Assembly: GCA_027592325.1 (NCBI GenBank)
Contig: JAQCKO010000003.1
Coordinates: 941 to 64,940, forward strand
Reading direction: 5' to 3'
DNA length: 64,000 nt
From: a bacterium
Lineage (GTDB): Bacteria; Patescibacteriota; Patescibacteriia; UBA9934
The translations under genes and the position numbers were made by a program. Under the pieces are notes generated by a model, which was not told the origin of the DNA, made no database searches, and saw only the letters and a program-made list of their open reading frames with translations. This document shows, piece after piece, positions 5,286 through 20,784 of the stretch. Each line of letters starts with the position of its first letter. Positions within the stretch are counted from its first letter, which is position 1.

Positions 5286-6466
5286 CTTGGCATTTCCTCA
5301 AGCGTGAGTGTGGTTGTGAGTTCATCTTCGCCCCGAAGTATACGAAGCGTTACCTTGTCGCCAACATTGTAGCGACGAATAAGAATCGCAAGACTTTGTT
5401 CTTGCGTGATATTGTCCTCATTTACGGAGAGGATAATGTCGCCCTCCTGCAGGCCGGCTTTTGCAGCCGGCGAATCGTTGAGGATGGCATTTTCGCCGGT
5501 TACATACGCTCCATTTTGGACAGGAAGTTCAATGTCTGCAAAAGGGACAGGGATGTACTGAACACCAATATATGGACGAATGACCCGTCCATTTTCGATA
5601 ATCGATTCTATGGTCATTTGTACGGTATTTGACGGGAGAGCAAACCCGATATTCTCTGAACCAGATGCAACGGCAACATTTACACCTATAACCTCACCAC
5701 GAAGATTAAGGAGCGGTCCGCCAGAATTTCCGGGATTAATCGCTGCATCAGTTTGAATGACATTATCAAGAAGTTCAGAATTGCCGCGATTATCTCCTGC
5801 AATAATTGATCGCGACAGACCAGAAACAACGCCGGTCGAAACGGAATTGCTGTATTCGGCGAGAGCATTCCCAATGGCAATTACCGACTGACCAAGCCGA
5901 AGCTGTTCAGAATCACCGAATGTGAGATAGGGAAGCTGTTGTCCGTCAATTTTCAATAAGGCAATATCGAGCATGGTATCGCGATCAATCACATCGGCGA
6001 TAAAGTCTCGTCCATCTGGAAGGTGCACCGTATAGGTAGCGTCAATGCTTGAGACTACATGGGCATTGGTGACCAAATAGCCGTCTTCAGAAACGATAAA
6101 ACCAGATCCTCCACCGACTTCACGCTCAATAGTTCCATCTTGTTCTAAGAGTGGGACCTGAATGTCAAGGCCGAAGAAATCCTCGAATGGATTATCGAAA
6201 ACACGATTGAAACTTGGGACTTCTTCGGTAATGCTAATCGCCACAACGGCAGGGTTTACGACATCAACAATATCGGCGACACCGAGGACGGTTCCATTGA
6301 GACTGCTCGTAAGCATTGCTGCCTTACGCGTAAGATCGGTTTCAACGGGTTGCATAAGAAGATAGAGCCCCACGAATGAAAGCGTAAAAATCGCTCCTAT
6401 AATACCGCCGGTAATAGTATTCGAGAGTGATGATTGTTTTATTGATGACATATCTCTATTGTTCAC
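5282..6466 (-). CDS. htrA: HtrA/DegP-family trypsin-like serine protease with PDZ domain
   Basis: GNSGGPL serine motif with upstream His/Asp. C-terminal PDZ-like region and N-terminal TM helix. Confidence 0.85.
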   Translation of the reverse strand: MNNRDMSSIKQSSLSNTITGGIIGAIFTLSFVGLYLLMQPVETDLTRKAAMLTSSLNGTVLGVADIVDVVNPAVVAISITEEVPSFNRVFDNPFEDFFGLDIQVPLLEQDGTIEREVGGGSGFIVSEDGYLVTNAHVVSSIDATYTVHLPDGRDFIADVIDRDTMLDIALLKIDGQQLPYLTFGDSEQLRLGQSVIAIGNALAEYSNSVSTGVVSGLSRSIIAGDNRGNSELLDNVIQTDAAINPGNSGGPLLNLRGEVIGVNVAVASGSENIGFALPSNTVQMTIESIIENGRVIRPYIGVQYIPVPFADIELPVQNGAYVTGENAILNDSPAAKAGLQEGDIILSVNEDNITQEQSLAILIRRYNVGDKVTLRILRGEDELTTTLTLEEMPS

Positions 6467-7061: not shown

Positions 7062-7136
7062 TCCGGGGTAGCTCAGTGGCAGAGCAGTTGGCTGTTAACC
7101 AATTGGTCGTGGGTTCGAATCCCACCCCCGGAGCCA
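7062..7136 (+). tRNA. tRNA-Asn (anticodon GTT)
   Basis: Hand-folded cloverleaf. Acceptor stem TCCGGGG/CCCCGGA, D arm GCTC-AGTGGCA-GAGC and anticodon loop CTGTTAA. T arm GTGGG-TTCGAAT-CCCAC, discriminator G and encoded CCA. Confidence 0.9.
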
Positions 7137-7145
7137 TCAAAGAAT

Positions 7146-7170
7146 CTCAGTTTTACTGAGGTTTTTTGTT
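7146..7170 (+). terminator. intrinsic terminator after tRNA-Asn
   Basis: Hairpin CTCAG-TTTTA-CTGAG followed by TTTTTTGTTT. Confidence 0.7.
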
Positions 7171-7215
7171 TGACCCAAGTGGGATTTCAGAACCCTAGTG
7201 TGATAACATGGCTCC
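7169..7215 (+). promoter_or_regulatory. conserved junction block P1 (TTTGACCCAAGTGGGAYKTCRGAACC...TGATAA), candidate promoter/leader
   Basis: Near-identical 40-45 nt blocks at 7169-7215, 13069-13110, 14152-14193, 21636-21677 and 22420-22447. Each lies between a junction terminator and the next cassette gene and contains the -35-like TTGACC. Confidence 0.4.
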
Positions 7216-7217
7216 AT

Positions 7218-7928
7218 ATGTTTTTAGAAGAAATGAAAACAACAGATTTTGAGGAAGGCAAAAAGTACATTTTTGTCATTCCAACGGGATCTACGGAACA
7301 ACATGGACCGTTCCTACCGCTTGGCACGGATTCTTACATTCAGGATGCAATTATCAATGGGGCCGAGAAACAGCTGACTGAGTTTATCTTTCTTCCAACG
7401 ATGCGGATTACTTGCTCAGAGGAACATGAAGGTTTTGCGGGGTCTGTTTGGATTTCACTCGATACTATGGAGCGTGTAATGAACGATATCTGTAAGTCGC
7501 TAGAGCCTTACGCTAAGAAGTTCATTTTCACTACGGCTCACGGTGGAAATATTGAGGTATTAAAGCGATTTGTTGAAAAGCATAAAAATGATTTTCCTAA
7601 TATCGAACTTCATTACGTAGACCCTGATAACGAAGAGATCGAGGAGAAGACGGTTGAATTGATTGGCGGACCAGTGGAAGATCATGCTGGTAACACGGAA
7701 ATCTCTATTATGCTTGGAATTCGTAACGACCTAACAATGATCCCAACTAAAGATTACCCGAAAAAGATTCTTGATAATGCTTTCAAAACAAATCGCTTGA
7801 AAGATTTCTCAGAAGACGGGATTGCCGATAACCATCCAGATTGGGTAATAGATGAAAGCCACGGAGAAAAGATACTGGACTGGATTGTTGAAGATTTTGT
7901 CGACTCATTGAAGAAGATTGTAAGCTAG
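7218..7928 (+). CDS. creatininase-family amidohydrolase
   Basis: IPTGSTEQHGPFLPLGTD motif. Start trimmed to the first ATG (7218) downstream of the tRNA, because the raw ORF 7047-7928 overlaps the tRNA. Confidence 0.7.
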   Translation: MFLEEMKTTDFEEGKKYIFVIPTGSTEQHGPFLPLGTDSYIQDAIINGAEKQLTEFIFLPTMRITCSEEHEGFAGSVWISLDTMERVMNDICKSLEPYAKKFIFTTAHGGNIEVLKRFVEKHKNDFPNIELHYVDPDNEEIEEKTVELIGGPVEDHAGNTEISIMLGIRNDLTMIPTKDYPKKILDNAFKTNRLKDFSEDGIADNHPDWVIDESHGEKILDWIVEDFVDSLKKIVS

Positions 7929-8668
7929 ATAAATTGATCCATCGCCATCAGGGACTCCAAGTTTGCCGTTCTGAATCCGTCCAGTATTCGGAGCCAATAA
8001 AAATTCACCGTCTTGTGCGGTGGATTTTTATTGGCTCTGGAGGGGGTAGGACAGTCCTGAGGACTGTCCGTGGGATGAGAACGGCCGGAGGCATATGTCG
8101 TCAGCAGACGACATGCCGAGGCCTGGTCCTGAGTGCGGTTTTCTGCAGAAAACCGACACGACGGCGAATCCCACCCCCGGAGCCAGGCTAGACGATCAGC
8201 ATCAAAGCTGATCGTTTTGCTTTTCTGAGGTATGTAATCAGATAGATTTAGTACCAAATTAAAAGGACTTCTTAATTCTAACAGTAATTTGCGATCCTTT
8301 AATTCTGGGTTCTGAACGAGGAAATTAATGAATTGGCGTTTTTCGTGTAATTCAGCACCTTCGAATATTTCTCGAGAACGACGAGCCACGGAAAGTACCG
8401 TGGCTACTGTCGTTTTGTAGTCATGATCTGCTTGAGTATGTTCTCCAAGCTCTATATTTAGACGCTGAAGACGATCTGTAAGCTCTTGCAGTTTTGTGTC
8501 GTAATCCTCCTTAGTAATCCGCACATTGAACTGGACACAACTTCGAAGGATTGGGATGGGTGTGTAGAAACGATTCTCAAACTGCTCGACGATGAGAGAA
8601 ACTGAACCATCAACAGCTTCAGCTCTGGCTACTTCACTGTTCTGAATGCGTCCAGTATCGGGAACCAA
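7925..8668 (-). CDS. hypothetical protein, probably a truncated or decaying gene
   Basis: Only ORF between R0 and R2. The N-terminal 150 codons (8230-8668) look protein-like. The C-terminal 95 codons read through the terminator, R0, the structured segment and R1 and are Pro/Ser/Arg-rich (likely non-coding read-through). A 25-codon homologous remnant (HEESQFINALVQTP) sits at 14954-15039. Confidence 0.3.
   Translation of the reverse strand: MVPDTGRIQNSEVARAEAVDGSVSLIVEQFENRFYTPIPILRSCVQFNVRITKEDYDTKLQELTDRLQRLNIELGEHTQADHDYKTTVATVLSVARRSREIFEGAELHEKRQFINFLVQNPELKDRKLLLELRSPFNLVLNLSDYIPQKSKTISFDADRLAWLRGWDSPSCRFSAENRTQDQASACRLLTTYASGRSHPTDSPQDCPTPSRANKNPPHKTVNFYWLRILDGFRTANLESLMAMDQFI
7968..7996 (+). 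repeat. junction repeat R1 (GTTCTGAATCCGTCCAGTATTCGGAGCCA), tRNA 3'-end-like
   Basis: 29-nt core ending in CGGAGCCA. Its last 6 nt begin a 47-nt near-perfect inverted repeat (7991-8037). Confidence 0.75.
7991..8037 (+). repeat. long hairpin GAGCCAATAAAAATTCACCG-TCTTGTG-CGGTGGATTTTTATTGGCTC (class B junction hairpin)
   Basis: 20-nt arms with one mismatch. The same hairpin core recurs at 9849-9885 after R3. Confidence 0.7.
8038..8164 (+). other. GC-rich highly structured segment with three perfect hairpins (candidate ncRNA or recombination-site arm)
   Basis: Hairpins GGACAGTCC-TGA-GGACTGTCC, ATGTCGTC-AGCA-GACGACAT with extended flanking pairing, and CGGTTTTCTG/CAGAAAACCG. GC content is well above the flanks, with an exact tRNA 3'-end copy at its 3' edge. 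Confidence 0.4.
8165..8185 (+). repeat. R0: exact 21-nt direct repeat of tRNA-Asn 3' end (CGAATCCCACCCCCGGAGCCA = 7116-7136)
   Basis: Perfect identity to the tRNA 3' end. Candidate att core delimiting a 1.07-kb unit. Confidence 0.85.
8192..8226 (+). terminator. intrinsic terminator (ACGATCAGC-ATCAAA-GCTGATCGT plus T-run)
   Basis: 9-bp perfect stem followed by TTTGCTTTTCT. A similar GACGATCAG hairpin follows R7 at 14846-14880. Confidence 0.65.
8639..8667 (+). repeat. junction repeat R2 (degenerate, ends GGGAACCA)
   Basis: GTTCTGAATGCGTCCAGTATCGGGAACCA followed by a degenerate class B hairpin (GCGGCGGATTTTT). Confidence 0.55.
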
Positions 8669-8724
8669 TAATCCTTCGCTAATTTCAGCGGCGGATTTTT
8701 GATACCCAAATAAAATTCAGAACC

Positions 8725-9819
8725 GTGGTAAAATCTTCGGGTGTGAAATTTGAACATAGAAGAACAGTCGAATATGTAGAATCGGCTAAAGTCAGTTTAG
8801 AAGATTTTGATGTTGGAGATACTCTAGAGGCATTGGCGGGTATTGCGTTAAAAGACGAAACTCAAAAGCGCGTATTGGAACTTCAAGAAAAAAAAAGGGG
8901 GGTAATGGAGTGGTTGAAAAATCAACGTACCAAAATTAACAATGGTGAAAAGATAGAATTGCATGAACAGCATTCGAAAATTTTCCATGTTGTTTATCAA
9001 GATGGCGCTTTCATCGGGAGTGACGGTGAACAAAGCTTTGATTTAACATTAGGCGAGTTGTTAACAGATGCATCTTGGGGCATTGATTATGATCTTGACA
9101 TGGATTCGGTGCCTTCAGATATAGCAAAGCAATATATTTTATCTAGAGCTAAAAGGATGCTGCGTGAATTGCTAAACAGGCAACTGGTTTTAATCGAATT
9201 GGATGTAAATAACGACGATCAGCAGAAGAAGTCCTTTTCAGCTGTTGGTGAAAGACAGAAGCAAGGAAGAGAGCTGATAGCTCAAGATCAGGGTTTTATT
9301 GCTGAAGAGATGATATTAAATTTAATAAAAAAACTAGTCATAGATCACGATTTGCCAGTTGAAATAGAGGAAGTAGATGTTTATGACGATGTGGTTAATA
9401 AAGTTGATTATGTTATCAGGAGAACTGATCGTAAAAGAGGGGTTGAAATTGATGTGATTGATGAAGAAAGTCCTGAACGGATAGGTGTTCAGTTCACACT
9501 CATGTTTCGAAAGGCCTCTATGGTTGGTAAGCGTAAAACAGTCTTACAGGCATTGAGAAGAGGTATGGTAGGTGAACTGCAAGATTTACAGGATATTGCT
9601 GTAGTAAATGTTCACCCAGCATATATAAAGCGATCAGTTAACACATGGAAAAAAACTAGAAAACCTGGCGGGCCGGACAATTGTTTAGAGGTAGCTGCTA
9701 AGGTAGATTTAGTTCAAAAAATGCTAAAAGATTTATTTTCAGAAAATGAAATAGATGAAATTGTAAGTGAAGTTTACGGCGTTGATAGAAATAAAACTAA
9801 AATTCGCAGAACCTATTAA
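8725..9819 (+). CDS. hypothetical protein
   Basis: 364-aa ORF filling cassette R2-R3, with no recognisable motifs. Confidence 0.5.
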   Translation: MVKSSGVKFEHRRTVEYVESAKVSLEDFDVGDTLEALAGIALKDETQKRVLELQEKKRGVMEWLKNQRTKINNGEKIELHEQHSKIFHVVYQDGAFIGSDGEQSFDLTLGELLTDASWGIDYDLDMDSVPSDIAKQYILSRAKRMLRELLNRQLVLIELDVNNDDQQKKSFSAVGERQKQGRELIAQDQGFIAEEMILNLIKKLVIDHDLPVEIEEVDVYDDVVNKVDYVIRRTDRKRGVEIDVIDEESPERIGVQFTLMFRKASMVGKRKTVLQALRRGMVGELQDLQDIAVVNVHPAYIKRSVNTWKKTRKPGGPDNCLEVAAKVDLVQKMLKDLFSENEIDEIVSEVYGVDRNKTKIRRTY

Positions 9820-9848
9820 GTTCTAACATCCTCCACGATGCGGAGCCA
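9820..9848 (+). repeat. junction repeat R3 (GTTCTAACATCCTCCACGATGCGGAGCCA)
   Basis: Followed by the class B hairpin AAAAATTCACCG-TCTTGTG-CGGTGGATTTTT (9849-9885). Confidence 0.75.
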
Positions 9849-9936
9849 ATAAAAATTCACCGTCTTGTGCGGTGGATTTTTGTATTTCCAATCACCCTCC
9901 CAGATTTCTTGCCGAAATGATACACTTGGTCACAAT

Positions 9937-10761
9937 ATGAACGTGAAAGAATTTTATAAACATTCATCAAAGGAAATCGTCGATCTATTTCGTGATTTTA
10001 TTGAAAAAGATTGTTTCAGCCAATATCCTGAATTAAAGGATAAGTTGAGCTTCGTGCTCACGGGATCCGTACCCTCGAATCACTATGATCAATATAGTGA
10101 TATTGATTGTAATTTGTTATTCGAGAACGAATCTGATCTGGCCATGATTAAGGAAGCTGTAAAAAAGTATAAGATGAGCTTACGGGAACAAAAACTTCCG
10201 ATTCAGCTTCACTCCCCAATGACGTTTAGCGAATTGGAAAACTCCTTGACCAATTGGAATCATGATTCGGCTTTACGTGAACACGCGGCAGCACTCGTCA
10301 TTTTTGACCCACACGATCGCTATAAAACAATTCAATCGCGGATCAAATGGTATCCAAAAGAAGTATTACAAGAAAAGATTCAATGGCTTTTTGCCGAATC
10401 TATTTTTGCGTTTGAAGATCGTCTTGTTGTGGCCGTGGAACGTGAAAATGATCTCTATGTACGCTCGTTGAGTTTACAGATAGTGAAACTGCTAGCCAAC
10501 GCACTCATCATGATAAATGACCGCTATCCTGTATTTGAAAAGCATATATATTTTAATCTCCGTGATCTCGGTGAAAATGAGTTTTGTGCTCAAATCGACT
10601 TGCTCCTGAGCATGACCGAGACAGATGAAATCCAAAGGTCTATTACTGATATCATCGATACCGTGGAACAACGCCTTATTAAAGCTGGTTTTATGGAAAA
10701 ACAGCCCAAAGAGCATTGGATACAGCTTCGTCCTAAGTTTCAGATTGAAGGATGCGCCTAG
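9937..10761 (+). CDS. polymerase-beta-superfamily nucleotidyltransferase domain protein
   Basis: LTGS-x10-DID matches the hG[GS]-x9-13-DhD minimal nucleotidyltransferase signature. Helical C-terminal domain. Start trimmed to ATG 9937. Confidence 0.6.
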   Translation: MNVKEFYKHSSKEIVDLFRDFIEKDCFSQYPELKDKLSFVLTGSVPSNHYDQYSDIDCNLLFENESDLAMIKEAVKKYKMSLREQKLPIQLHSPMTFSELENSLTNWNHDSALREHAAALVIFDPHDRYKTIQSRIKWYPKEVLQEKIQWLFAESIFAFEDRLVVAVERENDLYVRSLSLQIVKLLANALIMINDRYPVFEKHIYFNLRDLGENEFCAQIDLLLSMTETDEIQRSITDIIDTVEQRLIKAGFMEKQPKEHWIQLRPKFQIEGCA

Positions 10762-10841
10762 AAGGATTCAATGAATTTTGCAAATGTTCCATGCTGACTT
10801 AGACCTGGTATACTCATTCAAACCTCACAAAGAGTTTTTTT

Positions 10842-11861
10842 ATGGCAGAAAGACCAACGTTTAATCCTGAAATCAGAGAACTGCATGAAGGTGTAAAGAA
10901 GTTTGAAATCGTCGATGTAGAAGGTAATCGGTTAGGAGTTTGTGAATCTGTATTTGAAAAACACCCAACCAATGAACAGTACAAAGTTTTGCAGAGATGT
11001 GAACTTACTGCTGCAAACGGTGAAAAAATTGACTTGCTTCAGATGCCTGATGGTGAAAGAAGCAATGTCGAGGTTTTATTTGTCGACAATCCACGGATTG
11101 AAGAACAATATCTGATGCGTGTTGGTACCGTAGTTTTAGTTAATCGAGACATGACCTCCATTGATGACATTGCCGTATTATTGCATGAGATGGGACATGA
11201 CGAGCAGGCTCGCTCTTCTGATGGTTTCTCAGAAGTTTACAATGCGATGCACATTAACAACGACCTGCCATATGATGATTTTTCACGAGCGTTTCGTGAT
11301 TTAAGCGACAGTTTTCGAGTTCTTTATGCTTATATTGAAATGGTAGATCGTGATGTACCAATGCACGTTAAGCTTGATCAGGATTTAGAAGAAGAAATTA
11401 GAAATGCCGTAGCGGAATTTAAGCGTTTACATTTAGACGATGCAAAAGAATCTGATCGCATTAAAAAAGAAGTTGGTAGGGGTTATCTAGAGTGGTCCGA
11501 GGATGAGGAGCGTTATAACAAAGATCACCTAGCTGGGATTCGGGCCTTATCGTCCTCTACAGAGAGTGTTCTAAAAAAACATCCAAAGCTTCGTGGCATT
11601 TACACCGATATGGTTTTATGGCAGGAACGGGATGCTTCTGACCGAGCACGCGCTCGACTGAACGTTTTTGTCGAACAGGGAATGAATCTTGTTGACGCAA
11701 AGTTTCCTCTCACCGATCGAGAAATAGCTATGGCTGAAAATAACTTAACGCACAAATCGAGAAGGATGCAGGAGGCAACGAGGGCCTATCTTGAAGATCG
11801 AGACAAGACGATCGATGAGCGGCTTAAATTCTCGTATCAAACGTATGAATGTACGCATTGA
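10842..11861 (+). CDS. hypothetical protein with HExxH (zincin-like) motif, possible metallopeptidase
   Basis: LLHEMGHDEQ motif. Shares a cassette with the nucleotidyltransferase, with no junction repeat between them. Confidence 0.45.
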   Translation: MAERPTFNPEIRELHEGVKKFEIVDVEGNRLGVCESVFEKHPTNEQYKVLQRCELTAANGEKIDLLQMPDGERSNVEVLFVDNPRIEEQYLMRVGTVVLVNRDMTSIDDIAVLLHEMGHDEQARSSDGFSEVYNAMHINNDLPYDDFSRAFRDLSDSFRVLYAYIEMVDRDVPMHVKLDQDLEEEIRNAVAEFKRLHLDDAKESDRIKKEVGRGYLEWSEDEERYNKDHLAGIRALSSSTESVLKKHPKLRGIYTDMVLWQERDASDRARARLNVFVEQGMNLVDAKFPLTDREIAMAENNLTHKSRRMQEATRAYLEDRDKTIDERLKFSYQTYECTH

Positions 11862-11884
11862 TTGGTGAATTCTGTTCAACGGCA

Positions 11885-11913
11885 GTTCTAACATCCTCCA
11901 CGATGCGGAGCCA
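11885..11913 (+). repeat. junction repeat R4 (identical core to R3/R5)
   Basis: GTTCTAACATCCTCCACGATGCGGAGCCA followed by a class A terminator (ACCGG-TTTCA-CTGGT plus T-run). Confidence 0.75.
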
Positions 11914-12014
11914 ACAAAAACATACCGGTTTCACTGGTGTTTTTTTGTTTGTTTCAAAGCTATCTAGAGTGGGAATTGAACTTTCTTGATATAATGAATC
12001 TAGAAGATTGAATT

Positions 12015-13001
12015 ATGCGCAAATCATTCGATATTCCTCAACGCAGGTCAGATGTTGAGAAGCCCCCTGCACCAGAACTTAGGTTCTTCTTCTCTGCTCA
12101 CGGACAAATTCAAGACTATGAAGGTATCCAAGAAGCTTTACAGGATGCTGATGTTTTTGTTGTAGAAGCACACGGATGGAACGAAGATGATCTAAGGTAT
12201 CTTCAAGAAATTTCAGATGGAACCAAGGTTCCGAGGCACATAGAGGAAAAACGTGAACCACAAGATGTTATTGAATATGAGGAAGACTTGCTTTATAAAA
12301 CTGGTAAACGGATTGAAATCGTTGACGTACCCGAAGGCCACGAATTAGACAAAGAAGACGATGGAACAGCTGGGATATCTGAGGCTGCGCGCACTTTTAT
12401 TGCTCGTGGAGATCTAGAATCTGCACTTGCAGCGCTAGATACGGCAGTAAAGATGAATGCGGAGTACATTAGAAAAAAAGATGAGTATATTGAAGGTCAA
12501 TTGGATGCTCTTTTGAAGAAGCTTTCAATTGAGGATCCAAATGCGAAAGTGTTGGTTCAGATAGGATCGACACATACAGGCATTTCGCACGACTTAAGAA
12601 GAGAAGGAATAGCAAGTCGAGTACGTAATAGTGTAAAATTCGATTTTAAAGATGAGCTTGTTCGTTCTTATCGATTCAAAAAATCTCCTGAGAGGGATCT
12701 ATTAATAAAAGTCTTGATTGAAGAGGTGTTAAGAACAAGTTTTCAAGATCAACTCAGAAAGGTGCCATATATTCAGCGAGTCGATTTTTTCAGAAAGCAT
12801 TTAGCAAATATAACTGAGGAACAGATTCAAAATTTGGGCTATAAGACAGAGTCTAAGTTCTTTGATCGAGTGATTATGCGCTATGAGAATTACACACCAG
12901 AGCTTAAGAGACAGATTTTGACTGAATCATGGCAAGTTGTCTTCGGGGCGGCTATCGATGAAAGTATTGCAAAGTTAGTAAATCAGCAGCATGATCGATG
13001 A
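12015..13001 (+). CDS. hypothetical protein
   Basis: 328-aa ORF in cassette R4-R5, with no recognisable motifs. Confidence 0.5.
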   Translation: MRKSFDIPQRRSDVEKPPAPELRFFFSAHGQIQDYEGIQEALQDADVFVVEAHGWNEDDLRYLQEISDGTKVPRHIEEKREPQDVIEYEEDLLYKTGKRIEIVDVPEGHELDKEDDGTAGISEAARTFIARGDLESALAALDTAVKMNAEYIRKKDEYIEGQLDALLKKLSIEDPNAKVLVQIGSTHTGISHDLRREGIASRVRNSVKFDFKDELVRSYRFKKSPERDLLIKVLIEEVLRTSFQDQLRKVPYIQRVDFFRKHLANITEEQIQNLGYKTESKFFDRVIMRYENYTPELKRQILTESWQVVFGAAIDESIAKLVNQQHDR

Positions 13002-13006
13002 TCTTG

Positions 13007-13035
13007 GTTCTAACATCCTCCACGATGCGGAGCCA
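13007..13035 (+). repeat. junction repeat R5
   Basis: Identical 29-mer to R3/R4. Followed by a class A terminator (CATCGG-GTTTA-CTGGTG plus T8) and conserved block P2 (13069-13110). Confidence 0.8.
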
Positions 13036-13118
13036 GCAAAAGACATCGGGTTTACTGGTGTTTTTTTTGTTTGACCCAAATGGGACTTCGGAACAAGAAT
13101 TTGATAAACTGGTTTTAT

Positions 13119-14009
13119 ATGAAAAATGCATTCAACCTGCAAATCCCTGAGATGAAAGACATTCTGGCAGATCCTGAGATAGAGAAGTCCGTATCGGACA
13201 TGTTGGGAACCGTTTTGAGTTACCTCGGAATTCCAGACGACGCAACTGGGCGTGTAGTTGAGGAAACGTTCGACAAAACGAAAAAGGCGGTGTCAATCAC
13301 CGAATACGAGAAGAATGTACACGCTCTGCTTGATCGCGAGGGCGTAGTAGCCGCATTTCCACATAAGCTACTTGAGCGTACAAAGATCATGGTAGAAGAG
13401 CTTAGACCGTATCTTCTTGAGGGTAGCGTGCTAGATTTGGGATGTGGTGACGGCAAGACAGGGGAACTGCTAGCCGATACGCATGAAGTACAACTAGCGG
13501 ACGTGTTTGAACATCTGCACATCAAGGAAACGGGCTTGGACTTTACGTTTTTCAAGCAGGGCGAGCTTGTACCTATTGAAGATAACTCGTTCGACAATAC
13601 GTTAAGTATCTACGTATATCATCACAGCGACGATCCAATACAATCAATGCTCGAGGCGAAGCGGGTCACTCGGTCTGGTGGGAGAATCATTGTAATGGAA
13701 TCGGTTTATGGAGTGGACGAGTTGCTTCTCAGCGATGAACAGAAAGAGAAAGCTAAACCATTCTTACGCTTATCTGCGGAACAGCAGCGTTTATGTAACA
13801 TTTTTTTTGACCATTTCTGGAATCGGGTATTGATGTATAGCGATGACCCAAGCATGAAGATCAACGTTCCATTCAATTTTAATACTCCCGATGGTTGGAA
13901 GAAGATCTTTGAGGCTAATGGTCTTACACAGGAGAAAATGATTCACATGGGTATGGATCAACCAACCGTTCCTGAGTACCACACGATGCATATTTTGCGA
14001 GTAAACTAA
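13119..14009 (+). CDS. class I SAM-dependent methyltransferase
   Basis: VLDLGCGDGKTG motif I. Start trimmed to ATG 13119, after the conserved block. Confidence 0.7.
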   Translation: MKNAFNLQIPEMKDILADPEIEKSVSDMLGTVLSYLGIPDDATGRVVEETFDKTKKAVSITEYEKNVHALLDREGVVAAFPHKLLERTKIMVEELRPYLLEGSVLDLGCGDGKTGELLADTHEVQLADVFEHLHIKETGLDFTFFKQGELVPIEDNSFDNTLSIYVYHHSDDPIQSMLEAKRVTRSGGRIIVMESVYGVDELLLSDEQKEKAKPFLRLSAEQQRLCNIFFDHFWNRVLMYSDDPSMKINVPFNFNTPDGWKKIFEANGLTQEKMIHMGMDQPTVPEYHTMHILRVN

Positions 14010-14092
14010 TTTTTGAATGTGTTTACAAAAAGTTGAATGTATTCATGATAGAAACTGATCTATTGTAGGCCTTTAATGATGCCCAATGCACG

Positions 14093-14121
14093 GTTCTGAA
14101 CCCGTTCAGTATTCGGAGCCA
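14093..14121 (+). repeat. junction repeat R6 (GTTCTGAACCCGTTCAGTATTCGGAGCCA)
   Basis: Followed by the terminator TCAAAAAATCTCAGTTTTACTGAGGTTTTTTG, which is near-identical to the one after the tRNA, then block P3 (14152-14193). Confidence 0.8.
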
Positions 14122-14203
14122 TCAAAAAATCTCAGTTTTACTGAGGTTTTTTGTTTGATCCAAATGGGACTTCAGTACAAGAATTTGATAAACTAATATT
14201 TGT

Positions 14204-14776
14204 ATGAACGTTGCTGAACAAATTCAAAAGATGGTTACCGATGGGGTTTTGATCATTGCCATAGATGGTCATGGTGGTTCTGGCAAATCTTCCCTCGGAA
14301 GGATGTTGGGAGAAAAACTTCATGCCACAGTTTTCCATACCGATGATTTTGCTTCATGGGATAACCCAACCGAGTGGTACGAGGATATGATCGAGCAAGT
14401 CTTTATACCTATTGAAAATGGCGTAAAGACATTGAGTTATGAATTGTCAGTATGGGAAAAAGGTAAATCTCGTGGAAAAATTGAGAACCAGCCAGTAACG
14501 AACATTATCATCGTGGAAGGTGTCGGTGCGAGCAGAGCGGAGTTTCGCAAGTATCTCGACTTTTCCATCCTTGTCGATGTTCCTGAAAGCATTTGTATTG
14601 AAAGAGGGGTAAGTAGAGATCTTGCAGACATGCCCCACAAATCGAAAACGGAAATACGGAAACTTTGGCTTGATTGGATGGAAGAGGAGCGAAAGTATTT
14701 TTCAAAGCATCAACCCAAGGAAAATGCTGACGTTATTCTTGATGGAACAAAGTCGTTTGCTGAACAGATCGACTGA
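14204..14776 (+). CDS. P-loop nucleoside/nucleotide kinase-like protein (uridine-kinase/CPT-like fold)
   Basis: Walker A AIDGHGGSGKSS and Walker B-like IIIVEGVGA. 190 aa. Confidence 0.55.
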   Translation: MNVAEQIQKMVTDGVLIIAIDGHGGSGKSSLGRMLGEKLHATVFHTDDFASWDNPTEWYEDMIEQVFIPIENGVKTLSYELSVWEKGKSRGKIENQPVTNIIIVEGVGASRAEFRKYLDFSILVDVPESICIERGVSRDLADMPHKSKTEIRKLWLDWMEEERKYFSKHQPKENADVILDGTKSFAEQID

Positions 14777-14816
14777 CAAACTGAGCCATCATAGGCTTAA
14801 CTCCTGCCACTTGACC

Positions 14817-14845
14817 GTTCTGAACCCGTCCACGATGCGGAGCCA
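14817..14845 (+). repeat. junction repeat R7 (GTTCTGAACCCGTCCACGATGCGGAGCCA)
   Basis: Preceded by a 40-nt extension (14777-14816) that is 100% identical to 20425-20464. Followed by the terminator ACGATCAGTA-GAAA-TACTGGTCGT plus T-run. Confidence 0.8.
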
Positions 14846-15359
14846 AGAAGGACGATCAGTAGAAATACTGGTCGTTTTTCTTTGTGCTACTGAATAGTGT
14901 GCGAATTCTAGTACTGTATTCATTGGTTCTTTAGCTCAATAATGAATTCCCGTTCTTTCAATTAGGGAGTCTGAACAAGGGCATTGATGAACTGGCTTTC
15001 TTCATGCAAATCTATTGGCGAGCAGAAGGTAATATTGAGTCATGACATACTGAATACAAATGGATTGAGTTTGGCGATATAAAAAAATATCTTGGCACAA
15101 TCAAAACAATGAGATCGTGGCGATAAAATCAAAAATTCAAGACCTGACCCCTTTACGGTAGCATTGGCGAGTTGCTGCAACTCGGAGCACCTTCCACGGG
15201 TGGTCCTTACGTTTTAAAGGCGGAAATCGTGACAAAGTGAATGCACTTTTTTCTGGCAGGTCTTCTATGGTGGCTGTTTATGGGGGAGGTGCGTTTTGCA
15301 AGAGCTTGCCGCGTAAGGAGAAGAAGTGATGAGAGTTATTATTTGCTATACTTCTTCAT

Positions 15360-18293
15360 ATGGTCAGAAGATCAGAATATTATCGTATCAGTGAATTTGA
15401 GAGAGGTAGTGGTCATGAGCGTCCTCGTACTTCTATGGAGGGGGTTGAGGATTATGAGGCGCGAGAGCAGTCTTTTTTGTACGCTGCTCAAGATGAGAAG
15501 CGTGATTTGAAGGATTTGCTGAATGAGGTGCGTCCGTCGACGAGGTATTGGAGTGGCATGAAATCTCGAGTGCTAGAAAGTTTGCGGCGTATTGTTGGCG
15601 TTAAGGACTATGCGTCGATTTCTGATTCGCTTTCTAGTGAGGCTGCGCTAGACGCTTCTGGCGTTGAAGCGGAGGTTGCAGCCATGCGCGAAGATTTGGA
15701 AGTCCGAGAGCTTGAAGCTATTCTTGCGGAGTCACGTGGATCATCGCTTTTGGCGCGTCTCCGAGAGTTTTCATTTTCCTTTTTAGCAAAGCGTCAGCGA
15801 ATTTCGTTCGATGATAAGGGCGGCGAAGTGTCTAGCAAGCCAACCGCAGCGATCGAGAAGATTCAAAAAGTAGAGGAAAAGCGAGAAGAAATTTCCCTTA
15901 CCGATTGGCTTGAGGCGAAGATTCGTCGCGCTCGAGCGGAACGTATGTCCGATGGAGCTTCGGATGATGAGGTGCGGTTGGTTGATGATGAAATTTCGGA
16001 ATGGTTTCGAGCGAAGTTGGATCATTTTTTTGTGAGTGGTGGTGATCCTACGGATGAACAGGTATTGATTGATTGGCTTGAATCTGACGGTGAAGAAGTT
16101 GTTCCATCGGTTGAGACTACGGTTGTTCCGCGAGATAGCGATATATCTTCATCTGAAAAGCCGGGTGATGATGAAGAAGCGATTGAGAAAATGCTTGCGG
16201 AGATTCGCGGGCGTGAGGGGTTTTTGAATTCACTTTCTAACCATCGACGATATGTTCATGCTTTTCAATTAGCTTCGTTTTTAATGGCATCTGACGGAGG
16301 GAGTGCAGAAGCGTACAGGGATCTGGGGTCGGATATTGAAAAAGAAATGCAAGCAGGATTGGGAGAGAAGGTTGATTTAGAGGGGGTGCTTGAGGAGGAT
16401 CTTGATCATTTGGTGATGTACCGCTCGAATGAGCTTTTGAAAGCGTTTATTGAGGCGCCTGATCATCCTTTGGCTGCGAAGGGATTGCAAATGATGGCGG
16501 CGGAAAATCCATGCTATTTTGCGGGCGGATTATCTGCATTTTTTGAGCAGAGTTATTATAAAGATTTGCTTGAAGAAGTGATTTTTGCTGATCCTCGGTA
16601 TACGCTTGGCGTATTAGCTGAAGCAAAAGGGGATCAGAAGAACAGTGCTCTTGCCGATGAGGTTACCACTTTACTAAAGGATTCAACTCAGCTATCGGCG
16701 GAAACAATGCTAGTGCTGTCTTCTGAGGATATGCCAGCTTTTGAACGTGATAGGCTAGCTGATATTTTCCCTTTTTTGGTACGTGACAATGTGGGCGGTG
16801 AATTGTTTGACCAGATTCTGGGGGATGATCATGCGTATGTGGATGGACTCGTGTATGTGGCTTCGAATGATTTTGGGATTATGTCTGAGCGGGCCGACGA
16901 TACATTGAATGTAATTATGGACGAGCGCGTGGCTAGAATGAATAACTTGCAGGAGTCAGGGGACCCATATGCATCGATTAGGGGGGCGAGTGTTGATGAG
17001 CTGTATGCAACCATGGCCTATGGTAACTATGCAGCTCCGTGGATGGTCGATACGATGTTTAAAGAGCTTTCAGCGAAGATGAGGGAGGATGGCCTGGGGT
17101 CGAAGCAATTGGTTGATCGGCTGGGCGGACTTCAATTTCAGCAGTTTGCGGAAAATCTTTCAGAGGTAGGGCTATTTGATGAATTTTTGGTATTGGCCGT
17201 CGCTGAGCATCGCGGGAAGGCGCTCATTGATCGTTTTATTTCTGGGATTACTTCTGATAATGCTCGTGAATCGCTCGGACATATTACTCAGATGATTCAA
17301 CTCACCTCGCATACGGGTGTTCAATCGTATTTGAAGGAAGCTATCGAGCGCGAGTACGTGACAGCTCGTGATTCTGGCGACAAAGATCAACAGCGTGCTT
17401 ATGGAGTGCTTTCTTCTTTATTTGGCGAAGAAGCGACATGGCTTGATTCTAATGAATATATGGTTTCACCGCAGGAGAAGCTGGCCATTTCAGAGCTCTT
17501 CGATGAGAGTGGTCGCAGTGTTTCAGAGAATCGTTTTTATCAAGATATAGATAGTGATGGGCATTGGTCGTTTCTTAGCTGGGTGCAGCAACAGAAGCAG
17601 CTTGGGTTTGATGTGGAAGATCATGGAACCTTCATTCGTATGGTTAGGAAGCAAGAGAATCGTGTGGTGATTTTGTACGGAAATAAGCCTCAAGCTTCTC
17701 CACACGGTGCTACGAAACTCAAGGCCATGGATTATGCTCAATTTCAGCAGTTTAAGAAGAGTGCTGGACTAGGTGATGGGATCGCGGACGTACCGAGAGA
17801 TCGGTGGGATGACGGTATGAATGGAGTTGCTGATATGCGTGAACATATGCAAGCGAATGGCTTAGATGGGCAGATTTTGGTGCATCGTGGTCATTCGTAT
17901 TGGAATCAGTATACACTTGAAGATGTTTATGATTCGACCAGGCTTGTTATTGATGGGTCCTGCGGGGGAGCGGGGACTGTTCAGAATGCAATTCGTGCGA
18001 ATCCTGATGTGCAGATGCTTTATACTCGAGGGATTGGTTCAACGGGTATTAATGATACATTGGTTCGAAATATTAATGCGTTATTGATTGCAGGTAAAGA
18101 TATCGTTTGGAGTGATTTGCGAAGTGAAACTGGCGGAGAGTTCGGCGCCCTCTATAGCGATGCAGAGACTAGAGAAAAGGCTGAGGGATATTATGATAAG
18201 TATGTTTTTCCAGATCAGAAACAAGGTCTTTCTACGCGTGTTGTGCAACGATTTTTAGCCGGCGATACAGATCCCATTATAACAGCAGGTTAA
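15360..18293 (+). CDS. large acidic hypothetical protein (977 aa) with C-terminal His...Cys pattern whose order matches clan-CD (caspase-like) peptidases
   Basis: Long Asp/Glu-rich helical N-terminal region. C-terminal QILVHRGHSYW then RLVIDGSCGGAG, each after a hydrophobic strand, with His before Cys. Start uncertain (15360 or a downstream Met). Confidence 0.5.
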   Translation: MVRRSEYYRISEFERGSGHERPRTSMEGVEDYEAREQSFLYAAQDEKRDLKDLLNEVRPSTRYWSGMKSRVLESLRRIVGVKDYASISDSLSSEAALDASGVEAEVAAMREDLEVRELEAILAESRGSSLLARLREFSFSFLAKRQRISFDDKGGEVSSKPTAAIEKIQKVEEKREEISLTDWLEAKIRRARAERMSDGASDDEVRLVDDEISEWFRAKLDHFFVSGGDPTDEQVLIDWLESDGEEVVPSVETTVVPRDSDISSSEKPGDDEEAIEKMLAEIRGREGFLNSLSNHRRYVHAFQLASFLMASDGGSAEAYRDLGSDIEKEMQAGLGEKVDLEGVLEEDLDHLVMYRSNELLKAFIEAPDHPLAAKGLQMMAAENPCYFAGGLSAFFEQSYYKDLLEEVIFADPRYTLGVLAEAKGDQKNSALADEVTTLLKDSTQLSAETMLVLSSEDMPAFERDRLADIFPFLVRDNVGGELFDQILGDDHAYVDGLVYVASNDFGIMSERADDTLNVIMDERVARMNNLQESGDPYASIRGASVDELYATMAYGNYAAPWMVDTMFKELSAKMREDGLGSKQLVDRLGGLQFQQFAENLSEVGLFDEFLVLAVAEHRGKALIDRFISGITSDNARESLGHITQMIQLTSHTGVQSYLKEAIEREYVTARDSGDKDQQRAYGVLSSLFGEEATWLDSNEYMVSPQEKLAISELFDESGRSVSENRFYQDIDSDGHWSFLSWVQQQKQLGFDVEDHGTFIRMVRKQENRVVILYGNKPQASPHGATKLKAMDYAQFQQFKKSAGLGDGIADVPRDRWDDGMNGVADMREHMQANGLDGQILVHRGHSYWNQYTLEDVYDSTRLVIDGSCGGAGTVQNAIRANPDVQMLYTRGIGSTGINDTLVRNINALLIAGKDIVWSDLRSETGGEFGALYSDAETREKAEGYYDKYVFPDQKQGLSTRVVQRFLAGDTDPIITAG

Positions 18294-18294
18294 T

Positions 18295-18549
18295 ATGAAT
18301 AAACGATTATTTGCACTTATTCATTCATCTGATTTAGCGAAGGATGAACAGTATCGATTTCTTGGTATGCTTCGAGCTTCTTCTGAGTTAGATCAGAAAA
18401 AACTGGCGGTACTATTTTTGGAAGACCCTGCTTCTTTGCGAGCTGTTTTCGAAAATTTTGACGCGAAGCGTTCGGCGAAGGAGGACGGGAGTGTGGAGCT
18501 TTTTGAGCAGGCTATTGATAAAGAAAAGGAGTTTTTGCAAAATCTCTAA
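18295..18549 (+). CDS. small hypothetical protein (84 aa), translationally coupled to the upstream large protein
   Basis: Starts 1 nt after the stop of the 977-aa ORF. Confidence 0.45.
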   Translation: MNKRLFALIHSSDLAKDEQYRFLGMLRASSELDQKKLAVLFLEDPASLRAVFENFDAKRSAKEDGSVELFEQAIDKEKEFLQNL

Positions 18550-18618
18550 AAACGGCTCCATTAACAAGACCCCATTCGCCGTTGCGTTTGGGGTCTTTCG
18601 CCGTGAACTGAGCGTGTC

Positions 18619-19368
18619 TCAATTCGTTTGGCAGTCGTAGGCGCCGTCAGCGTTGACAGTGCAGTTCATTGGGATGATGAGGACCTCGTCGCCGACCTCT
18701 GCGACGTCGAAGAGGTAGTTCATCCAGGCACCATCCACGCCGACGCAGCCTTGGGTGTATTGCCCGGGCGTCCAGGAGTGGATGAGGATGTCTCCCCCCA
18801 TCGCGGTTTGTTGCGACGGTACCCTGCCGCTCTCGATGTGTTTCAGCATGCGTTTCATGGTGGGCTCGTCGATGACACCCTGCGTAAATGCACGCTTGAT
18901 GTCGCGACGGCGGGGGTAGTCGATGCGGAGGCCCTGCTCGAAACTCGTCTTGTACGGGTAGGCGCGATCGGAGTCGCGCGTCGCCTTCACGTGGACGACG
19001 TACTTGCCCTCGGGCGTTGACGACCAGTCGCGGCGGGTCTTTGGCCCTTCAGGCGTCTTCCCCATGTTCACGGGGATGCAGACAGTTTCGCCGCTCTGTA
19101 CCACCAGATAGCCTTCGTAATAAAGGGCGATGTGGTGGGTGTCCTTGAAGACCACCAGGGTGCGCTTCCCGGTTGTTCGACCGTCTGGTCGGTACTCGAT
19201 GGGAAGCTTGCCAAGGTCGGCGGGGCAGGGCGACTCCTTCTCGTAGGAGTAAGGGTTGTCGCTCCACGGGTGGGGAGCGGTCGCGGATGTGGTTATGATG
19301 TCGGCTGGTTTCTGAGGAGCGCAAAATGTCAGGTTTGAGGTCAGGGCGAGAATGAATGCTCGGAGCAT
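18619..19368 (-). CDS. secreted L,D-transpeptidase (YkuD-like) domain protein, compositionally foreign
   Basis: Signal peptide, then IHSWTPGQYTQGCVGV matching the LD-transpeptidase His/Cys catalytic motif. Markedly higher GC than all neighbours, and a high-GC gene typically carries long shadow ORFs on other frames (18628-19020, 19049-19324, 19132-19338). Confidence 0.6.
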   Translation of the reverse strand: MLRAFILALTSNLTFCAPQKPADIITTSATAPHPWSDNPYSYEKESPCPADLGKLPIEYRPDGRTTGKRTLVVFKDTHHIALYYEGYLVVQSGETVCIPVNMGKTPEGPKTRRDWSSTPEGKYVVHVKATRDSDRAYPYKTSFEQGLRIDYPRRRDIKRAFTQGVIDEPTMKRMLKHIESGRVPSQQTAMGGDILIHSWTPGQYTQGCVGVDGAWMNYLFDVAEVGDEVLIIPMNCTVNADGAYDCQTN

Positions 19369-19930
19369 GGCATCTCCAGCATGAAGTTAAAGAATTGACT
19401 GACCACTAACCTTAGCTTAAATGTGTTCATTTTGTCAAGGGGGTAATTGTTTTTACTCCTATCAAGCTTGTCAACAAGATTTTCCTGTTTCTCGCTTATT
19501 TTGATATAATGTGCAGCCGATCTCGCTCAGACGCTTTGCGCTCCTGATACGGAATCTGCCTATTGTGCAACTACGGATACGGCGGTCTATTATGTGACGC
19601 CAGATTGCCAGCGGTATTTTTTGAACGAGGATATTTTCATTAGTTATTATTCTTCTTGGGATGAAGTGAAGGAGAATGAGGAACTTTCCTTTATGCCTTC
19701 GGGGCCAAATTATCCCCTTTAATTTGGAACGCCTGTAAAGACGGTGAACGATCCCAAGGTCTGCATATTACTCCTTCCACTTTTGCCACTACCAGTATTT
19801 TTTTGTATTTGTTTCTTGCTTTGAAGAAAAATTACAAAATCAACTGGGTATTACTGTGGCTATTGTAGATATGGATGAGTATTGGCTAGACCGAGAATCC
19901 GATGCCTTCAAAGATGGCCGCGATCAGGAA

Positions 19931-19958
19931 CAGCTCGAATCCATGTGATGCGGAGCCA
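19931..19958 (+). repeat. junction repeat R8 (short variant ...GCTCGAATCCATGTGATGCGGAGCCA)
   Basis: Ends CGGAGCCA. Followed by the class C hairpin GGGACTCGAAC-TATCCAAT-GTTCGAG plus T-run (19961-19998). Confidence 0.65.
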
Positions 19959-20024
19959 ATGGGACTCGAACTATCCAATGTTCGAGTTTTGTTTTATGCT
20001 AGAGAAAAATTCGGTTCTAATTAT

Positions 20025-20432
20025 ATGAATCATATAGCAACAGGGATATTGATAGACAAGGATGGAAAACTCTTGGCCTATCTACGAGATGACAAACCGA
20101 GCATTCCGTTTCCTAATCATTGGGATCTTTTTGGTGGATACGTAGAAGATGGGGAAACGAATGAAGAAGCTCTTGTGCGTGAAGTGCAGGAAGAATTGGG
20201 ATGTAACCTCAAAGATTACAGCTTCTACAAAGATTATGAGTGTTTGAAGGGCGATGACCATGTAAATGTGAAGCATGTTTTTGTTGCGCACATTGATGCA
20301 AAAGCGGATGACCTGACTTTATATGAGGGTCAAGAGCTGCGTGGTATTCCACTTGAAGAAATACATGAGTACAAATGGGCAAACATTTTGGGAGTGATTT
20401 TGGATGACTTCGTAAAAGATCAAGCAAACTGA
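20025..20432 (+). CDS. NUDIX hydrolase
   Basis: Nudix box GGYVEDGETNEEALVREVQEELG. Start trimmed to ATG 20025, downstream of the junction hairpin. Confidence 0.75.
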   Translation: MNHIATGILIDKDGKLLAYLRDDKPSIPFPNHWDLFGGYVEDGETNEEALVREVQEELGCNLKDYSFYKDYECLKGDDHVNVKHVFVAHIDAKADDLTLYEGQELRGIPLEEIHEYKWANILGVILDDFVKDQAN

Positions 20433-20464
20433 GCCATCATAGGCTTAACTCCTGCCACTTGACC

Positions 20465-20493
20465 GTTCTGAACCCGTTCAGTATTCGAAGACA
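20465..20493 (+). repeat. junction repeat R9 (degenerate end CGAAGACA)
   Basis: GTTCTGAACCCGTTCAGTATTCGAAGACA, preceded by a 40-nt extension identical to 14777-14816. Followed by the hairpin CCTCAGCA-GAAA-TGCTGGGG plus T-run and a GGGGTTCGAACTG motif. Confidence 0.7.
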
Positions 20494-20598
20494 ACATCGC
20501 CTCAGCAGAAATGCTGGGGGTTTGTTATTGTTTTTGGACTTCCCGAAATGGGGTTCGAACTGATATAGTCCGAGAAGTAATTTTTTAACTCTCTAGTT

Positions 20599-20784
20599 AT
20601 GAAGACAATGAAATGTGATATGTGTGAAGCGACCGCAGAAGGCGAAACATTTGAGGCGTGGATGCAGGCTCTCATGCCTCATTACATGCAAGTTCATGCA
20701 GACGTAATGAATGATCCTAAGAATGGGAAAGAGGAGCAGATGAAATGGATGGTTGAAAATAAGGCAAGGTTTGAGGCTGCCTAA
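20599..20784 (+). CDS. small hypothetical protein (61 aa, CxxC near N-terminus)
   Basis: MKCDMCEATAEG. Sole ORF in cassette R9-R10. Confidence 0.4.
   Translation: MKTMKCDMCEATAEGETFEAWMQALMPHYMQVHADVMNDPKNGKEEQMKWMVENKARFEAA

Follow-up and report, generated by a model that had tools for sequence, protein, structure and literature searches.

Islands integrated into tRNA genes are bordered by displaced direct repeats of the tRNA 3' end, which have been catalogued by Islander (PMC4383910). In the ssrA islands of Dehalococcoides, a CcrB-like recombinase (DsiB) is encoded on the reverse strand beside attL, and the 20-bp repeat begins in the T loop (PMC3146451). Here we analysed a 64,000-nt stretch of a Patescibacteriota genome of the UBA9934 lineage (contig JAQCKO010000003.1 of assembly GCA_027592325.1, positions 941 to 64,940; hereafter the window, in whose numbering positions are given unless another locus is named), in which a GC-rich block of hairpins (8038-8164) lies between a cassette junction and a displaced copy of the tRNA-Asn 3' end. 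In the reading that we favour as probable, this block is the core of a structured module derived from tRNA-Asn (8031-8185; hereafter the element), which would probably be transcribed and would provide a second attachment site for a large serine recombinase (LSR).

The locus shares with the Islander att repeats an exact 21-nt copy of the tRNA end, a recombinase reading toward it and the start of an island at that point (PMC4383910); it differs in that a conserved structured domain of 100-250 nt, together with its own complement, precedes the copy, in that the unit also occurs behind tRNA-Asn without an island, and in that the enzyme is a serine and not a tyrosine recombinase. With SCCmec/Ccr (at rlmH) and the Dehalococcoides ssrA islands it has in common a reverse-strand recombinase beside attL, tandem arrays bounded by ~20-bp repeats of the target 3' end, and cargo-only units that are presumably mobilised in trans, whereas here the target is tRNA-Asn (tRNA-Asp or tRNA-Gln in relatives) and the att core lies in the last codons of the recombinase; the hairpin-rich pseudo-tRNA unit has no described counterpart there.

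Known tRNA-like RNAs and functional trailers include the tRNA-like domain of tmRNA, YrlA, mascRNA, viral tRNA-like structures and 3'ETS-leuZ. The element, as a putative RNA, resembles them in its acceptor/T-stem mimicry, CCA end, position in or beside a tRNA unit, high GC content and conservation of structure, but it has no Rfam match, its CCA end is base-paired, and a large branched insert takes the place of the T loop. Integron attC sites are imperfect palindromes at cassette boundaries, conserved in structure and variable in sequence. Such palindromes also mark a cassette boundary here, in a gene-free unit of a same-strand array, but the element occurs once per locus and not at each junction, unlike attC, and a serine enzyme acts on duplex DNA, making a folded single-strand substrate mechanistically implausible. 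We also rejected attC-like single-strand recombination by a serine recombinase because concerted double-strand cleavage of a hairpin would break the chromosome. No description of this element was found in the literature, and the conserved pseudo-tRNA hairpin unit is not present in island repeats, serine-recombinase islands, tRNA-like RNAs or attC.

Fold, relatives and covariation of the element

An earlier examination made from the letters alone (the sequence-only reading) had described three strong stem-loops in the segment 8038-8164, and an inverted-repeat search recovered all of them: the perfect hairpin H1 (GGACAGTCC-TGA-GGACTGTCC, 8049-8069), a second hairpin (ATGTCGTC-AGCA-GACGACAT, 8095-8114) with GGCAT/ATGCC as an extension of its stem and a bulge of 2 nt, and a third formed by the perfect palindrome CGGTTTTCTGCAGAAAACCG (8136-8155). 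The GC content, which that reading had judged far above background, was 0.606 against a window mean of 0.442 (standard deviation 0.054, 100-nt windows); comparable peaks were few in the 64 kb, and this was the sole one seen outside a long open reading frame (ORF). RNAfold predicted -86.6 kcal/mol for 8030-8190, compared with -58.9 +/- 4.2 kcal/mol for dinucleotide shuffles, corresponding to z = -6.5 and -7.4 on the plus and minus strands, respectively. The left edge TGGCTCTGGAGGGGG can pair with the tRNA 3' copy, and this complementarity closes the entire fold, with TTGGCTCTGGAGGGGG (8031-8046) pairing with CCCACCCCCGGAGCCA of the copy (inverted repeats I3 and I8), so that the structural unit is 8031-8185 and not 8038-8164. 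The narrower interval proposed earlier thus describes the GC-rich hairpin block correctly but falls short of the structural unit; its right end does adjoin the exact 21-nt copy of the tRNA-Asn 3' end, as had been claimed (R0; 8165-8185 = 7116-7136). The claim that no ORF lies on the cassette strand did not hold, because a plus-strand ORF (7934-8191, 85 aa, TTG start) crosses the segment, though nothing suggests that it is real. An intrinsic-terminator scan flagged only the flanking hairpins (8008-8023 and 8190-8217); none of H1, Ha and Hc was picked up (Table 1). A second copy of the element was not found within the 64-kb window; in relatives, copies are tied to tRNA-Asn or to att cores.

Relatives of the element were sought at other loci (L-numbers), comprising recombinase loci from a scan of GTDB genomes and metagenome contigs. 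When the segment was compared by blastn with 84 recombinase loci, only its tRNA-end part was matched, and one locus, L034, carried two copies of the same architecture with a different sequence. JGI metagenomes were scanned for the tRNA-end 17-mer in a non-T-loop (non-tRNA) context, which gave ~18 contigs with clear relatives, many other matches being due to chance in high-GC DNA; a direct-repeat search added L028 and L073, both with different tRNA-Asn ends. The family therefore comprises ~20 loci besides the window, in Patescibacteria metagenome-assembled genomes and mostly unlabelled metagenome contigs, which answers the earlier concern that the segment might have no homologues elsewhere. Usually, the real tRNA-Asn is followed by a short spacer or a terminator and then by the element, whose end repeats 15-21 nt of the tRNA end; a terminator comes last. 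The element almost always stands directly behind the real tRNA-Asn, and most metagenome contigs with the element have no cassette array downstream. Scans of viral contigs with two internal motifs gave nothing or chance matches, nhmmer with an inner-domain profile found no further members among the collected loci, and a GC-peak scan of the loci was too unspecific to pick out elements.

The comparison with Rfam families proposed by the sequence-only reading matched none: searches of the window, L034 and L153 against Rfam 15, at gathering thresholds and at E<=10, gave only chance-level miRNA/sRNA matches over the element, well below gathering, and the sole above-gathering match beside the L153 element was the true tRNA adjoining it. 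ARAGORN reported only 7062-7136, and the Rfam tRNA model only 7062-7133, with nothing at 8031-8185 even at E<=10. The element has no recognisable cloverleaf and is not a tRNA gene by this measure.

Independent folds of the relatives concur on a common layout of P1, H1, P2 and an inner domain, with z from -6 to -11. P1 consists of a G run (often with UGGC) paired with the 3' strand of the acceptor stem. H1 is a perfect hairpin of 7-10 bp with the loop CUGC in five sequences, UGA in two and GAAU/AAAU in two, and P2 pairs GUGGGAU with AUCCCAC. The inner domain, which replaces the T loop, is made up of between one and five GC-rich hairpins. Three unpaired motifs are conserved: GGGAU(UC|GA)GAA, GCCCAGG and, between Pa and Pb, an asymmetric GGA/GA internal loop; the T-loop-like position holds GGGAUGAGAA or GGGAUUCGAA in relatives (the motif recurs in L094, L126, L174, L142, L152 and L114). 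A hammerhead core (GAUGAG...GAAA) was considered and rejected because the element lacks the CUGA and the order of helices that a hammerhead needs, and Rfam was silent. A kink-turn at the GGA/GA loop was likewise discarded, the bulge being 1 nt and not 3.

Covariation was measured on an alignment of 8 sequences with a hand-drawn structure. Paired states filled 92.3% of the alignment cells, and both-sided changes occurred in 17 of the 31 pairs. The covariation score was 0.391 against 0.120 +/- 0.021 for shuffled alignments (reached by 0 of 500), and controls with slid partners were at most 52% paired with scores of at most 0.073. H1 showed both-sided compensatory changes in 9/9 columns across the 8 homologues, and the Hc counterpart in L034, CAATTTCC-GTCA-GGAAATTG, differs by three compensatory changes. 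The stem sequences of homologous elements are wholly unlike, with the pairing kept. Compensatory base changes, which the sequence-only reading had named as something to look for, are thus present, and ~20 other loci carry the architecture. The 17-mer search held the 3' end constant, and P1 and P2 are accordingly invariant in the 8-sequence set; the loci with different tRNA ends, L073 and L028, have 5' arms that match those ends (GGGUAGGG with CCCUACCC, and GGUGGUA with UACCGCC), and the T-loop variant GAGU of L120 and L191 is likewise matched by their 5' arms.

The element and tRNA-Asn have GGGGTAG and GTGGGAT...CGAATCCCAC in common, and H1 occupies the place of the D and anticodon arms. The partial tRNA-Asn copies of L144 and L136, with an anticodon arm still present and a T loop interrupted by inserted hairpins, look like intermediates. 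The CUGC loops of H1 may be a shrunken anticodon loop (CUGUUAA). By these resemblances, the element appears to be a remodelled copy of the neighbouring tRNA-Asn, with a scaffold of an acceptor-like helix, one hairpin, and a T stem carrying a multi-hairpin domain.

Two copies of the element lie on the minus strand of one array in L034 (4291-4504 and 1521-1815 of that locus); their 5' halves, including the preceding terminator, are identical, and their 3' halves differ, with 2 and 5 inner hairpins. This pair suggests duplication or carriage on a mobile circle, combined with modular gain of hairpins. A miniature element of 60 nt, in which GGGAUGAGAAGUUUAU is followed by one small GC hairpin and AAAUCCCACCCCCGGAGCCA, was seen behind tRNA-Asn in L114, L142 and L152; in L114 it starts 12 nt past the tRNA, with no terminator in between.

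Recombinase remnant and attachment sites

A minus-strand ORF of 247 aa (7925-8668) reads through the element. A protein search with it gave 17 matches, and the sole homologue covering its tail was P0001 (99% identical), from a sister sample of the same population; between its contig and the window there are 4 differences, all outside the element, and the sister contigs L001 and L003, identical over the element, are uninformative on covariation. All remaining homologues align only with residues ~51-164, leaving the N-terminal part and the tail unmatched, and the 247-aa ORF has no Pfam match. Two longer homologues (P0006 and P0014) have the Recombinase (PF07508) and Zn_ribbon_recom (PF13408) domains, so residues 51-164 represent a C-terminal LSR remnant. 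Homology stops at W162-L163-R164, encoded by the minus strand of 8165-8185 ahead of the GC-rich block (alignment A1). The Pro/Ser/Arg-rich tail, which had looked non-coding from the letters alone, is indeed non-coding read-through with no other homologue, and the whole ORF is a chimera of a recombinase remnant and the antisense of structured DNA. For annotation, this means that the 247-aa 'gene' of public assemblies is such a chimera.

Intact LSR C-termini end in ...(S/N)WLRxxDxxRT, and the tRNA end CGGAGCCA, reverse-complemented, gives the WLR codons TGGCTCCG. The remnant in the window reads ...AWLRG across 8185-8177 on the minus strand, and homologues stop at or just past WLRxxDxxRT or continue into whichever tRNA follows. 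Because the array junction repeat GTTCTGAATCCGTCCAGTATTCGGAGCCA encodes WLRILDGFRT on the minus strand, the att core sits in the recombinase's own last conserved codons. The possibility that the junction repeats are coding in the minus-strand frame of the ORF was rejected, as the copy at 9820 has an in-frame stop and WLRxxDxxRT lies in another frame.

When genomes were scanned with the C-terminal LSR alignment, 165 relatives came up, for which 80 loci were kept; nearly all of these are labelled Patescibacteria or unclassified bacterium, a few have other labels, and the closest are Uhrbacteria. Among the 35 loci scanned, the recombinase was fused directly to a real tRNA-Asn, tRNA-Asp or tRNA-Gln in at least 20. 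Integration swaps the last residues of the recombinase for antisense tRNA (window 8177-8230; L006 4595-4653; L008-L019), and many database 'proteins' of 140-230 aa are recombinase 3' remnants of this type with unrelated N-termini. Opposite the C-terminal coding extension of the recombinase, ...KTISFDADRLAWL (window 8187-8227; L008-L019), the tRNA strand carries an embedded tRNA terminator made of a hairpin and a T run, and the mobile element therefore supplies the tRNA with a new terminator.

Downstream of tRNA-Asn, the window contains 12 exact copies of CGGAGCCA against 1.4 expected by chance. An ordinary junction is a 29-nt tRNA-3'-like arm, including this core, plus a simple terminator. The distance from GTTC to the core is 21 nt in the junction arms and 16 nt in the tRNA. 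In serine integrases, the distal motif of an attP half-site lies ~5 bp further from the centre than that of attB, and the difference between the two spacings fits this offset; we accordingly call the longer arms P-type and the shorter B-type. The element's arm has the B-type spacing, yet retains only CGAA of the distal GTTCGAA motif; judging from the recombinase fusions described below, it would nevertheless be competent as attB. A separate idea, that the 5' arm is an inverted P-type half-site with fixed spacing, was abandoned, since the spacing varies from 15 to 24 nt between elements (hand count, H1 excluded).

The sequence that starts at the R1 core in the window is collinear with the one that starts at the tRNA 3' end in L126 and L174, in the order A-tract/T-tract terminator, GGAGGGGG, H1 and GTGGGATGAGAA; the creatininase cassette was thus inserted between the tRNA and its old terminator with the element. 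The extended stem of this ancestral terminator pairs 7991-8010 with 8018-8037 (inverted repeat I1, 20 nt, 95% complementary) and takes in the core GAGCCA and its complement TGGCTC. The 21-nt tRNA copy of the element is fused in frame to the LSR remnant, and in L034, L028 and L073, as in the window, the remnant is fused at the crossover core to the element's copy and not to the true tRNA. These fusions mark the end of the element as a second attachment site. As at other att sites, a direct repeat is present (21 nt in the window, 15-21 nt in relatives) and the recombinase adjoins it. The long cassette array (8187 to ~23040) begins at the element's tRNA copy, and the locus would thus have two attachment positions, both occupied in the window. 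Within the array (7137-23040) we noticed no recombinase gene in intact form.

Origin and role of the element

In the account that we prefer, a copy of tRNA-Asn behind the host tRNA would have been remodelled, H1 replacing the D and anticodon arms and a hairpin domain the T loop; the creatininase cassette would have entered between the tRNA and its ancestral terminator with the element; and an LSR would have integrated at the element's tRNA copy, from which the cassette array extends. The hairpin domain appears to be kept by selection for the single-strand fold of the tRNA-sense strand. This strand is purine-rich in 17/17 instances, folds more stably than the antisense strand in all 17 (mean difference -6.8 kcal/mol), holds 5 GNRA tetraloops against 0 on the antisense strand among 28 tetraloops, and carries the asymmetric G-A internal loop. 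High GC content is typical of structured RNA genes in AT-rich genomes. The most likely source of an RNA would be the tRNA-Asn transcript, as read-through or as a 3' trailer with tRNA-like trimming; no terminator lies between tRNA and element in L114, L152, L148, L108, L136 and L144. Two candidate roles can be proposed, that of a stable tRNA-like RNA and that of an insulator separating the essential tRNA from transcripts of the recombinase and array. A bolder version, which we advance tentatively, is that the element belongs to an undescribed family of tRNA-Asn-derived structured RNAs in Patescibacteria (the anticodon arm reduced to one hairpin, the T loop enlarged to a GNRA/G-A-rich multi-helix domain), made from the tRNA-Asn unit, and that its gene might double as a preferred 'safe' second attB for an integron-like serine-recombinase cassette system with its att core in the last codons of the enzyme.

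Several observations weigh against this account. The identity of the 3' ends is partly ascertainment, since an exact 17-mer had been required, and the covariation of P1 and P2 rests on two or three independent tRNA variants only. Composition accounts for -3.7 of the -6.8 kcal/mol strand difference, or about half. Internal G-U pairs are alike on both strands (20 and 26) and the H1 stems are purely Watson-Crick, so that the helices do not tell RNA from DNA, nor one strand from the other; G-U versus A-C asymmetry, tried as a strand test, gave no signal. Terminator-like hairpins (8008-8030 and 8190-8227) bracket the element with no promoter-like site between them. The half-site of the element lacks most of the distal GTTCGAA motif, and the recombinase could have integrated while the copy was still an intact tRNA.

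The sequence-only reading had also offered a gene-free mini-cassette carrying a small structured RNA, and part of this stands, as a gene-free unit does lie between two att cores and the structure is conserved. Taken further, the unit 7997-8185 (189 bp; terminator, hairpin block and att arm) could be a selfish mini-cassette mobilised in trans by the serine recombinase, comparable to a miniature inverted-repeat transposable element and its transposon or to an empty integron cassette, a view that we regard as unlikely; on this view the fold would be kept for the excision, persistence or transfer of the cassette and not for the host's sake. Its left boundary is a recombination core in two contexts, behind the tRNA (L126, L174) and behind a cassette arm (window, copy B of L034), in L034 a single array holds a pair of copies whose 5' halves are identical, and a circularised unit would be almost wholly self-complementary (I1 and I3). 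In L153, L144 and L136, moreover, the true tRNA lacks an encoded CCA and the element's copy keeps CCA and the terminator, as expected from insertion at GGAG|CCA, but tandem tRNAs explain this pattern equally well. The right arm is of the B-type and not the 5-nt-longer P-type of real cassettes, so the mini-cassette would be flanked by two attB-like sites, and to our knowledge serine integrases do not recombine two such sites. A 189-bp double-stranded circle would also be a poor substrate, and in most metagenome loci the element stands alone behind the tRNA, with no array or recombinase nearby.

A functionless origin, as a decaying tRNA-Asn copy or an att scar of recombinase activity with palindromes arising by DNA-level processes, seems improbable to us. 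The site is a recombination hot spot with a recombinase pseudogene adjacent, partial tRNA copies exist, no promoter was seen, and the helices are strand-symmetric and perfectly Watson-Crick, like DNA palindromes; neutral decay in a genome of 44% GC, however, would not be expected to yield 61-74% GC, a common multi-helix architecture with 17 covarying pairs, the conserved unpaired motifs GGGAUGAGAA, GGA/GA and GCCCAGG, or persistence across contigs of many unrelated samples. The segment directly adjoins the att core and contains palindromes, which are often targets of dimeric DNA-binding proteins, but we consider it very unlikely to be the protein-binding arm with arm-type or IHF-like sites suggested by the sequence-only reading. 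The recombinase here is an LSR, a class whose sites span ~40-50 bp and for which we know of no arm sites; the ~12 other array junctions lack such a block, at least 20 relatives have the recombinase on the true tRNA with no intervening block, and the stem sequences, being unrelated between homologous elements, are not sequence-specific binding sites. Finally, we give almost no credence to the view that a real protein of 247 aa is encoded here, with the segment as the 3' part of its gene: the ORF is uninterrupted and is called as a gene in two assemblies, but it has no Pfam match, homologues align to residues 51-164 only, homology ends before the GC-rich block, and the tail is the antisense of covarying hairpins.

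If the fold of the tRNA-derived element works as RNA, it would represent a new class of tRNA-derived RNA in a phylum of tiny genomes, where each retained non-coding element is informative, and a clear natural case of a remodelled tRNA gene with intermediates still visible. Either way, a duplicated att site behind the single-copy tRNA-Asn is an unrecognised trait of a widespread Patescibacteria integration hot spot, and a second attachment site helps to account for the build-up of two independent cassette arrays at a single tRNA. The serine-recombinase cassette system, with its core in C-terminal codons and terminators from mobile DNA, follows an integron-like logic with a different chemistry.

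Features of the locus and minor observations

Table 1. Positions of the tRNA-Asn gene, the element and the adjoining features in the window
Feature	Position	Strand	Basis or remark
Functional tRNA-Asn (GTT)	7062..7136	+	ARAGORN; Rfam tRNA 73.9 bits
Last 21 nt of tRNA-Asn, CGAATCCCACCCCCGGAGCCA	7116-7136	+	Duplicated at 8165-8185
Creatininase-family cassette	7137..7996	+	Pfam PF02633, E 5e-43; ends in junction repeat R1
Junction repeat R1: P arm and core CGGAGCCA	7968-7988 (arm), 7989-7996 (core)	+	Junction list
Bidirectional terminator hairpin, A tract and T tract	7997..8037	both	Ancestral tRNA-Asn terminator; alignment with L126, L174
Element 5' arm TTGGCTCTGGAGGGGGTA	8031..8048	+	Complement of tRNA 3' copy; 5' strand of acceptor-like helix P1
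H1, 9-bp perfect hairpin, loop TGA	8049..8069	+	In place of tRNA D and anticodon arms
T-stem 5' strand GTGGGAT (P2, pairs with 8168-8174), then T-loop-like GAGAAC	8070..8082	+	Folds
Inner domain, first branch	8083..8123	+	Fold, alignment columns, pair counts
Pa, GGCC with GGCC	8083-8086 with 8120-8123	+	Fold
Asymmetric internal loop GGA / GA, conserved	8087-8089, 8118-8119	+	Fold, alignment
Pb, GGCAT with ATGCC	8090-8094 with 8113-8117	+	Covariation in 3/3 pairs
Ha, GTCGTC-AGCA-GACGAC	8097-8112	+	Covariation in 5/6 pairs
Inner domain, second branch Hc: GTG-CGGTTTTC-TGCA-GAAAACCG-A-CAC	8133..8159	+	Inverted repeat, fold
Exact tRNA-Asn 3'-end copy, 3' strands of P2 and P1	8165..8185	+	Also B-type half-site and core CGGAGCCA
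Terminator-like hairpin with T run, closes unit	8190..8227	+	Same hairpin in L008-L019
LSR remnant, C-terminal part only (residues 51-164 of ORF 7925-8668)	8177..8518	-	Homologues P0006, P0014
Non-coding read-through tail of 247-aa ORF	7925..8176	-	Antisense of element and R1

The stretch 7137-23040 is an integron-like array of ~13 same-strand accessory-gene cassettes at tRNA-Asn, with a creatininase-family gene, a nucleotidyltransferase, methyltransferases, a kinase, and NUDIX, RidA and SET genes as cargo. A motif, TTTTTTGTTTGACCCAAGTGGGAyTTCAGAAC...GATAAAC, recurs at 7161-7217, 13062-13118, 14146-14202 and 21630-21686, that is, behind the terminator at several cassette left ends and behind the tRNA; it may belong to the recombination site or be a cassette promoter, whose -35 box would be TTGACC. 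The array also contains a 977-aa ORF (15360-18293) with no Pfam match, in a stretch where the GC skew is unusually high (0.26-0.34).

Among the related loci, the tRNA-Asn genes of L008, L035, L037, L073, L097, L126 and L142 are split after the anticodon by group I intron-like sequence (motifs AGATATAGTCC and GTAGAGACTAGA), and in the scanned subset of these (L008, L035 and L037) ARAGORN reported no tRNA. In L101, a GC-rich metagenome contig, the minus strand carries an 18-nt tandem repeat (TTCCCACCCCCGGAGCCA, ~5310-5440), which fits the tRNA-end pattern by chance and is probably a repetitive coding region with no relation to the element. Elsewhere in the window, a 9-nt unit (CAGATCGTT-like) is repeated in tandem ~5-6 times at 32661-32715.

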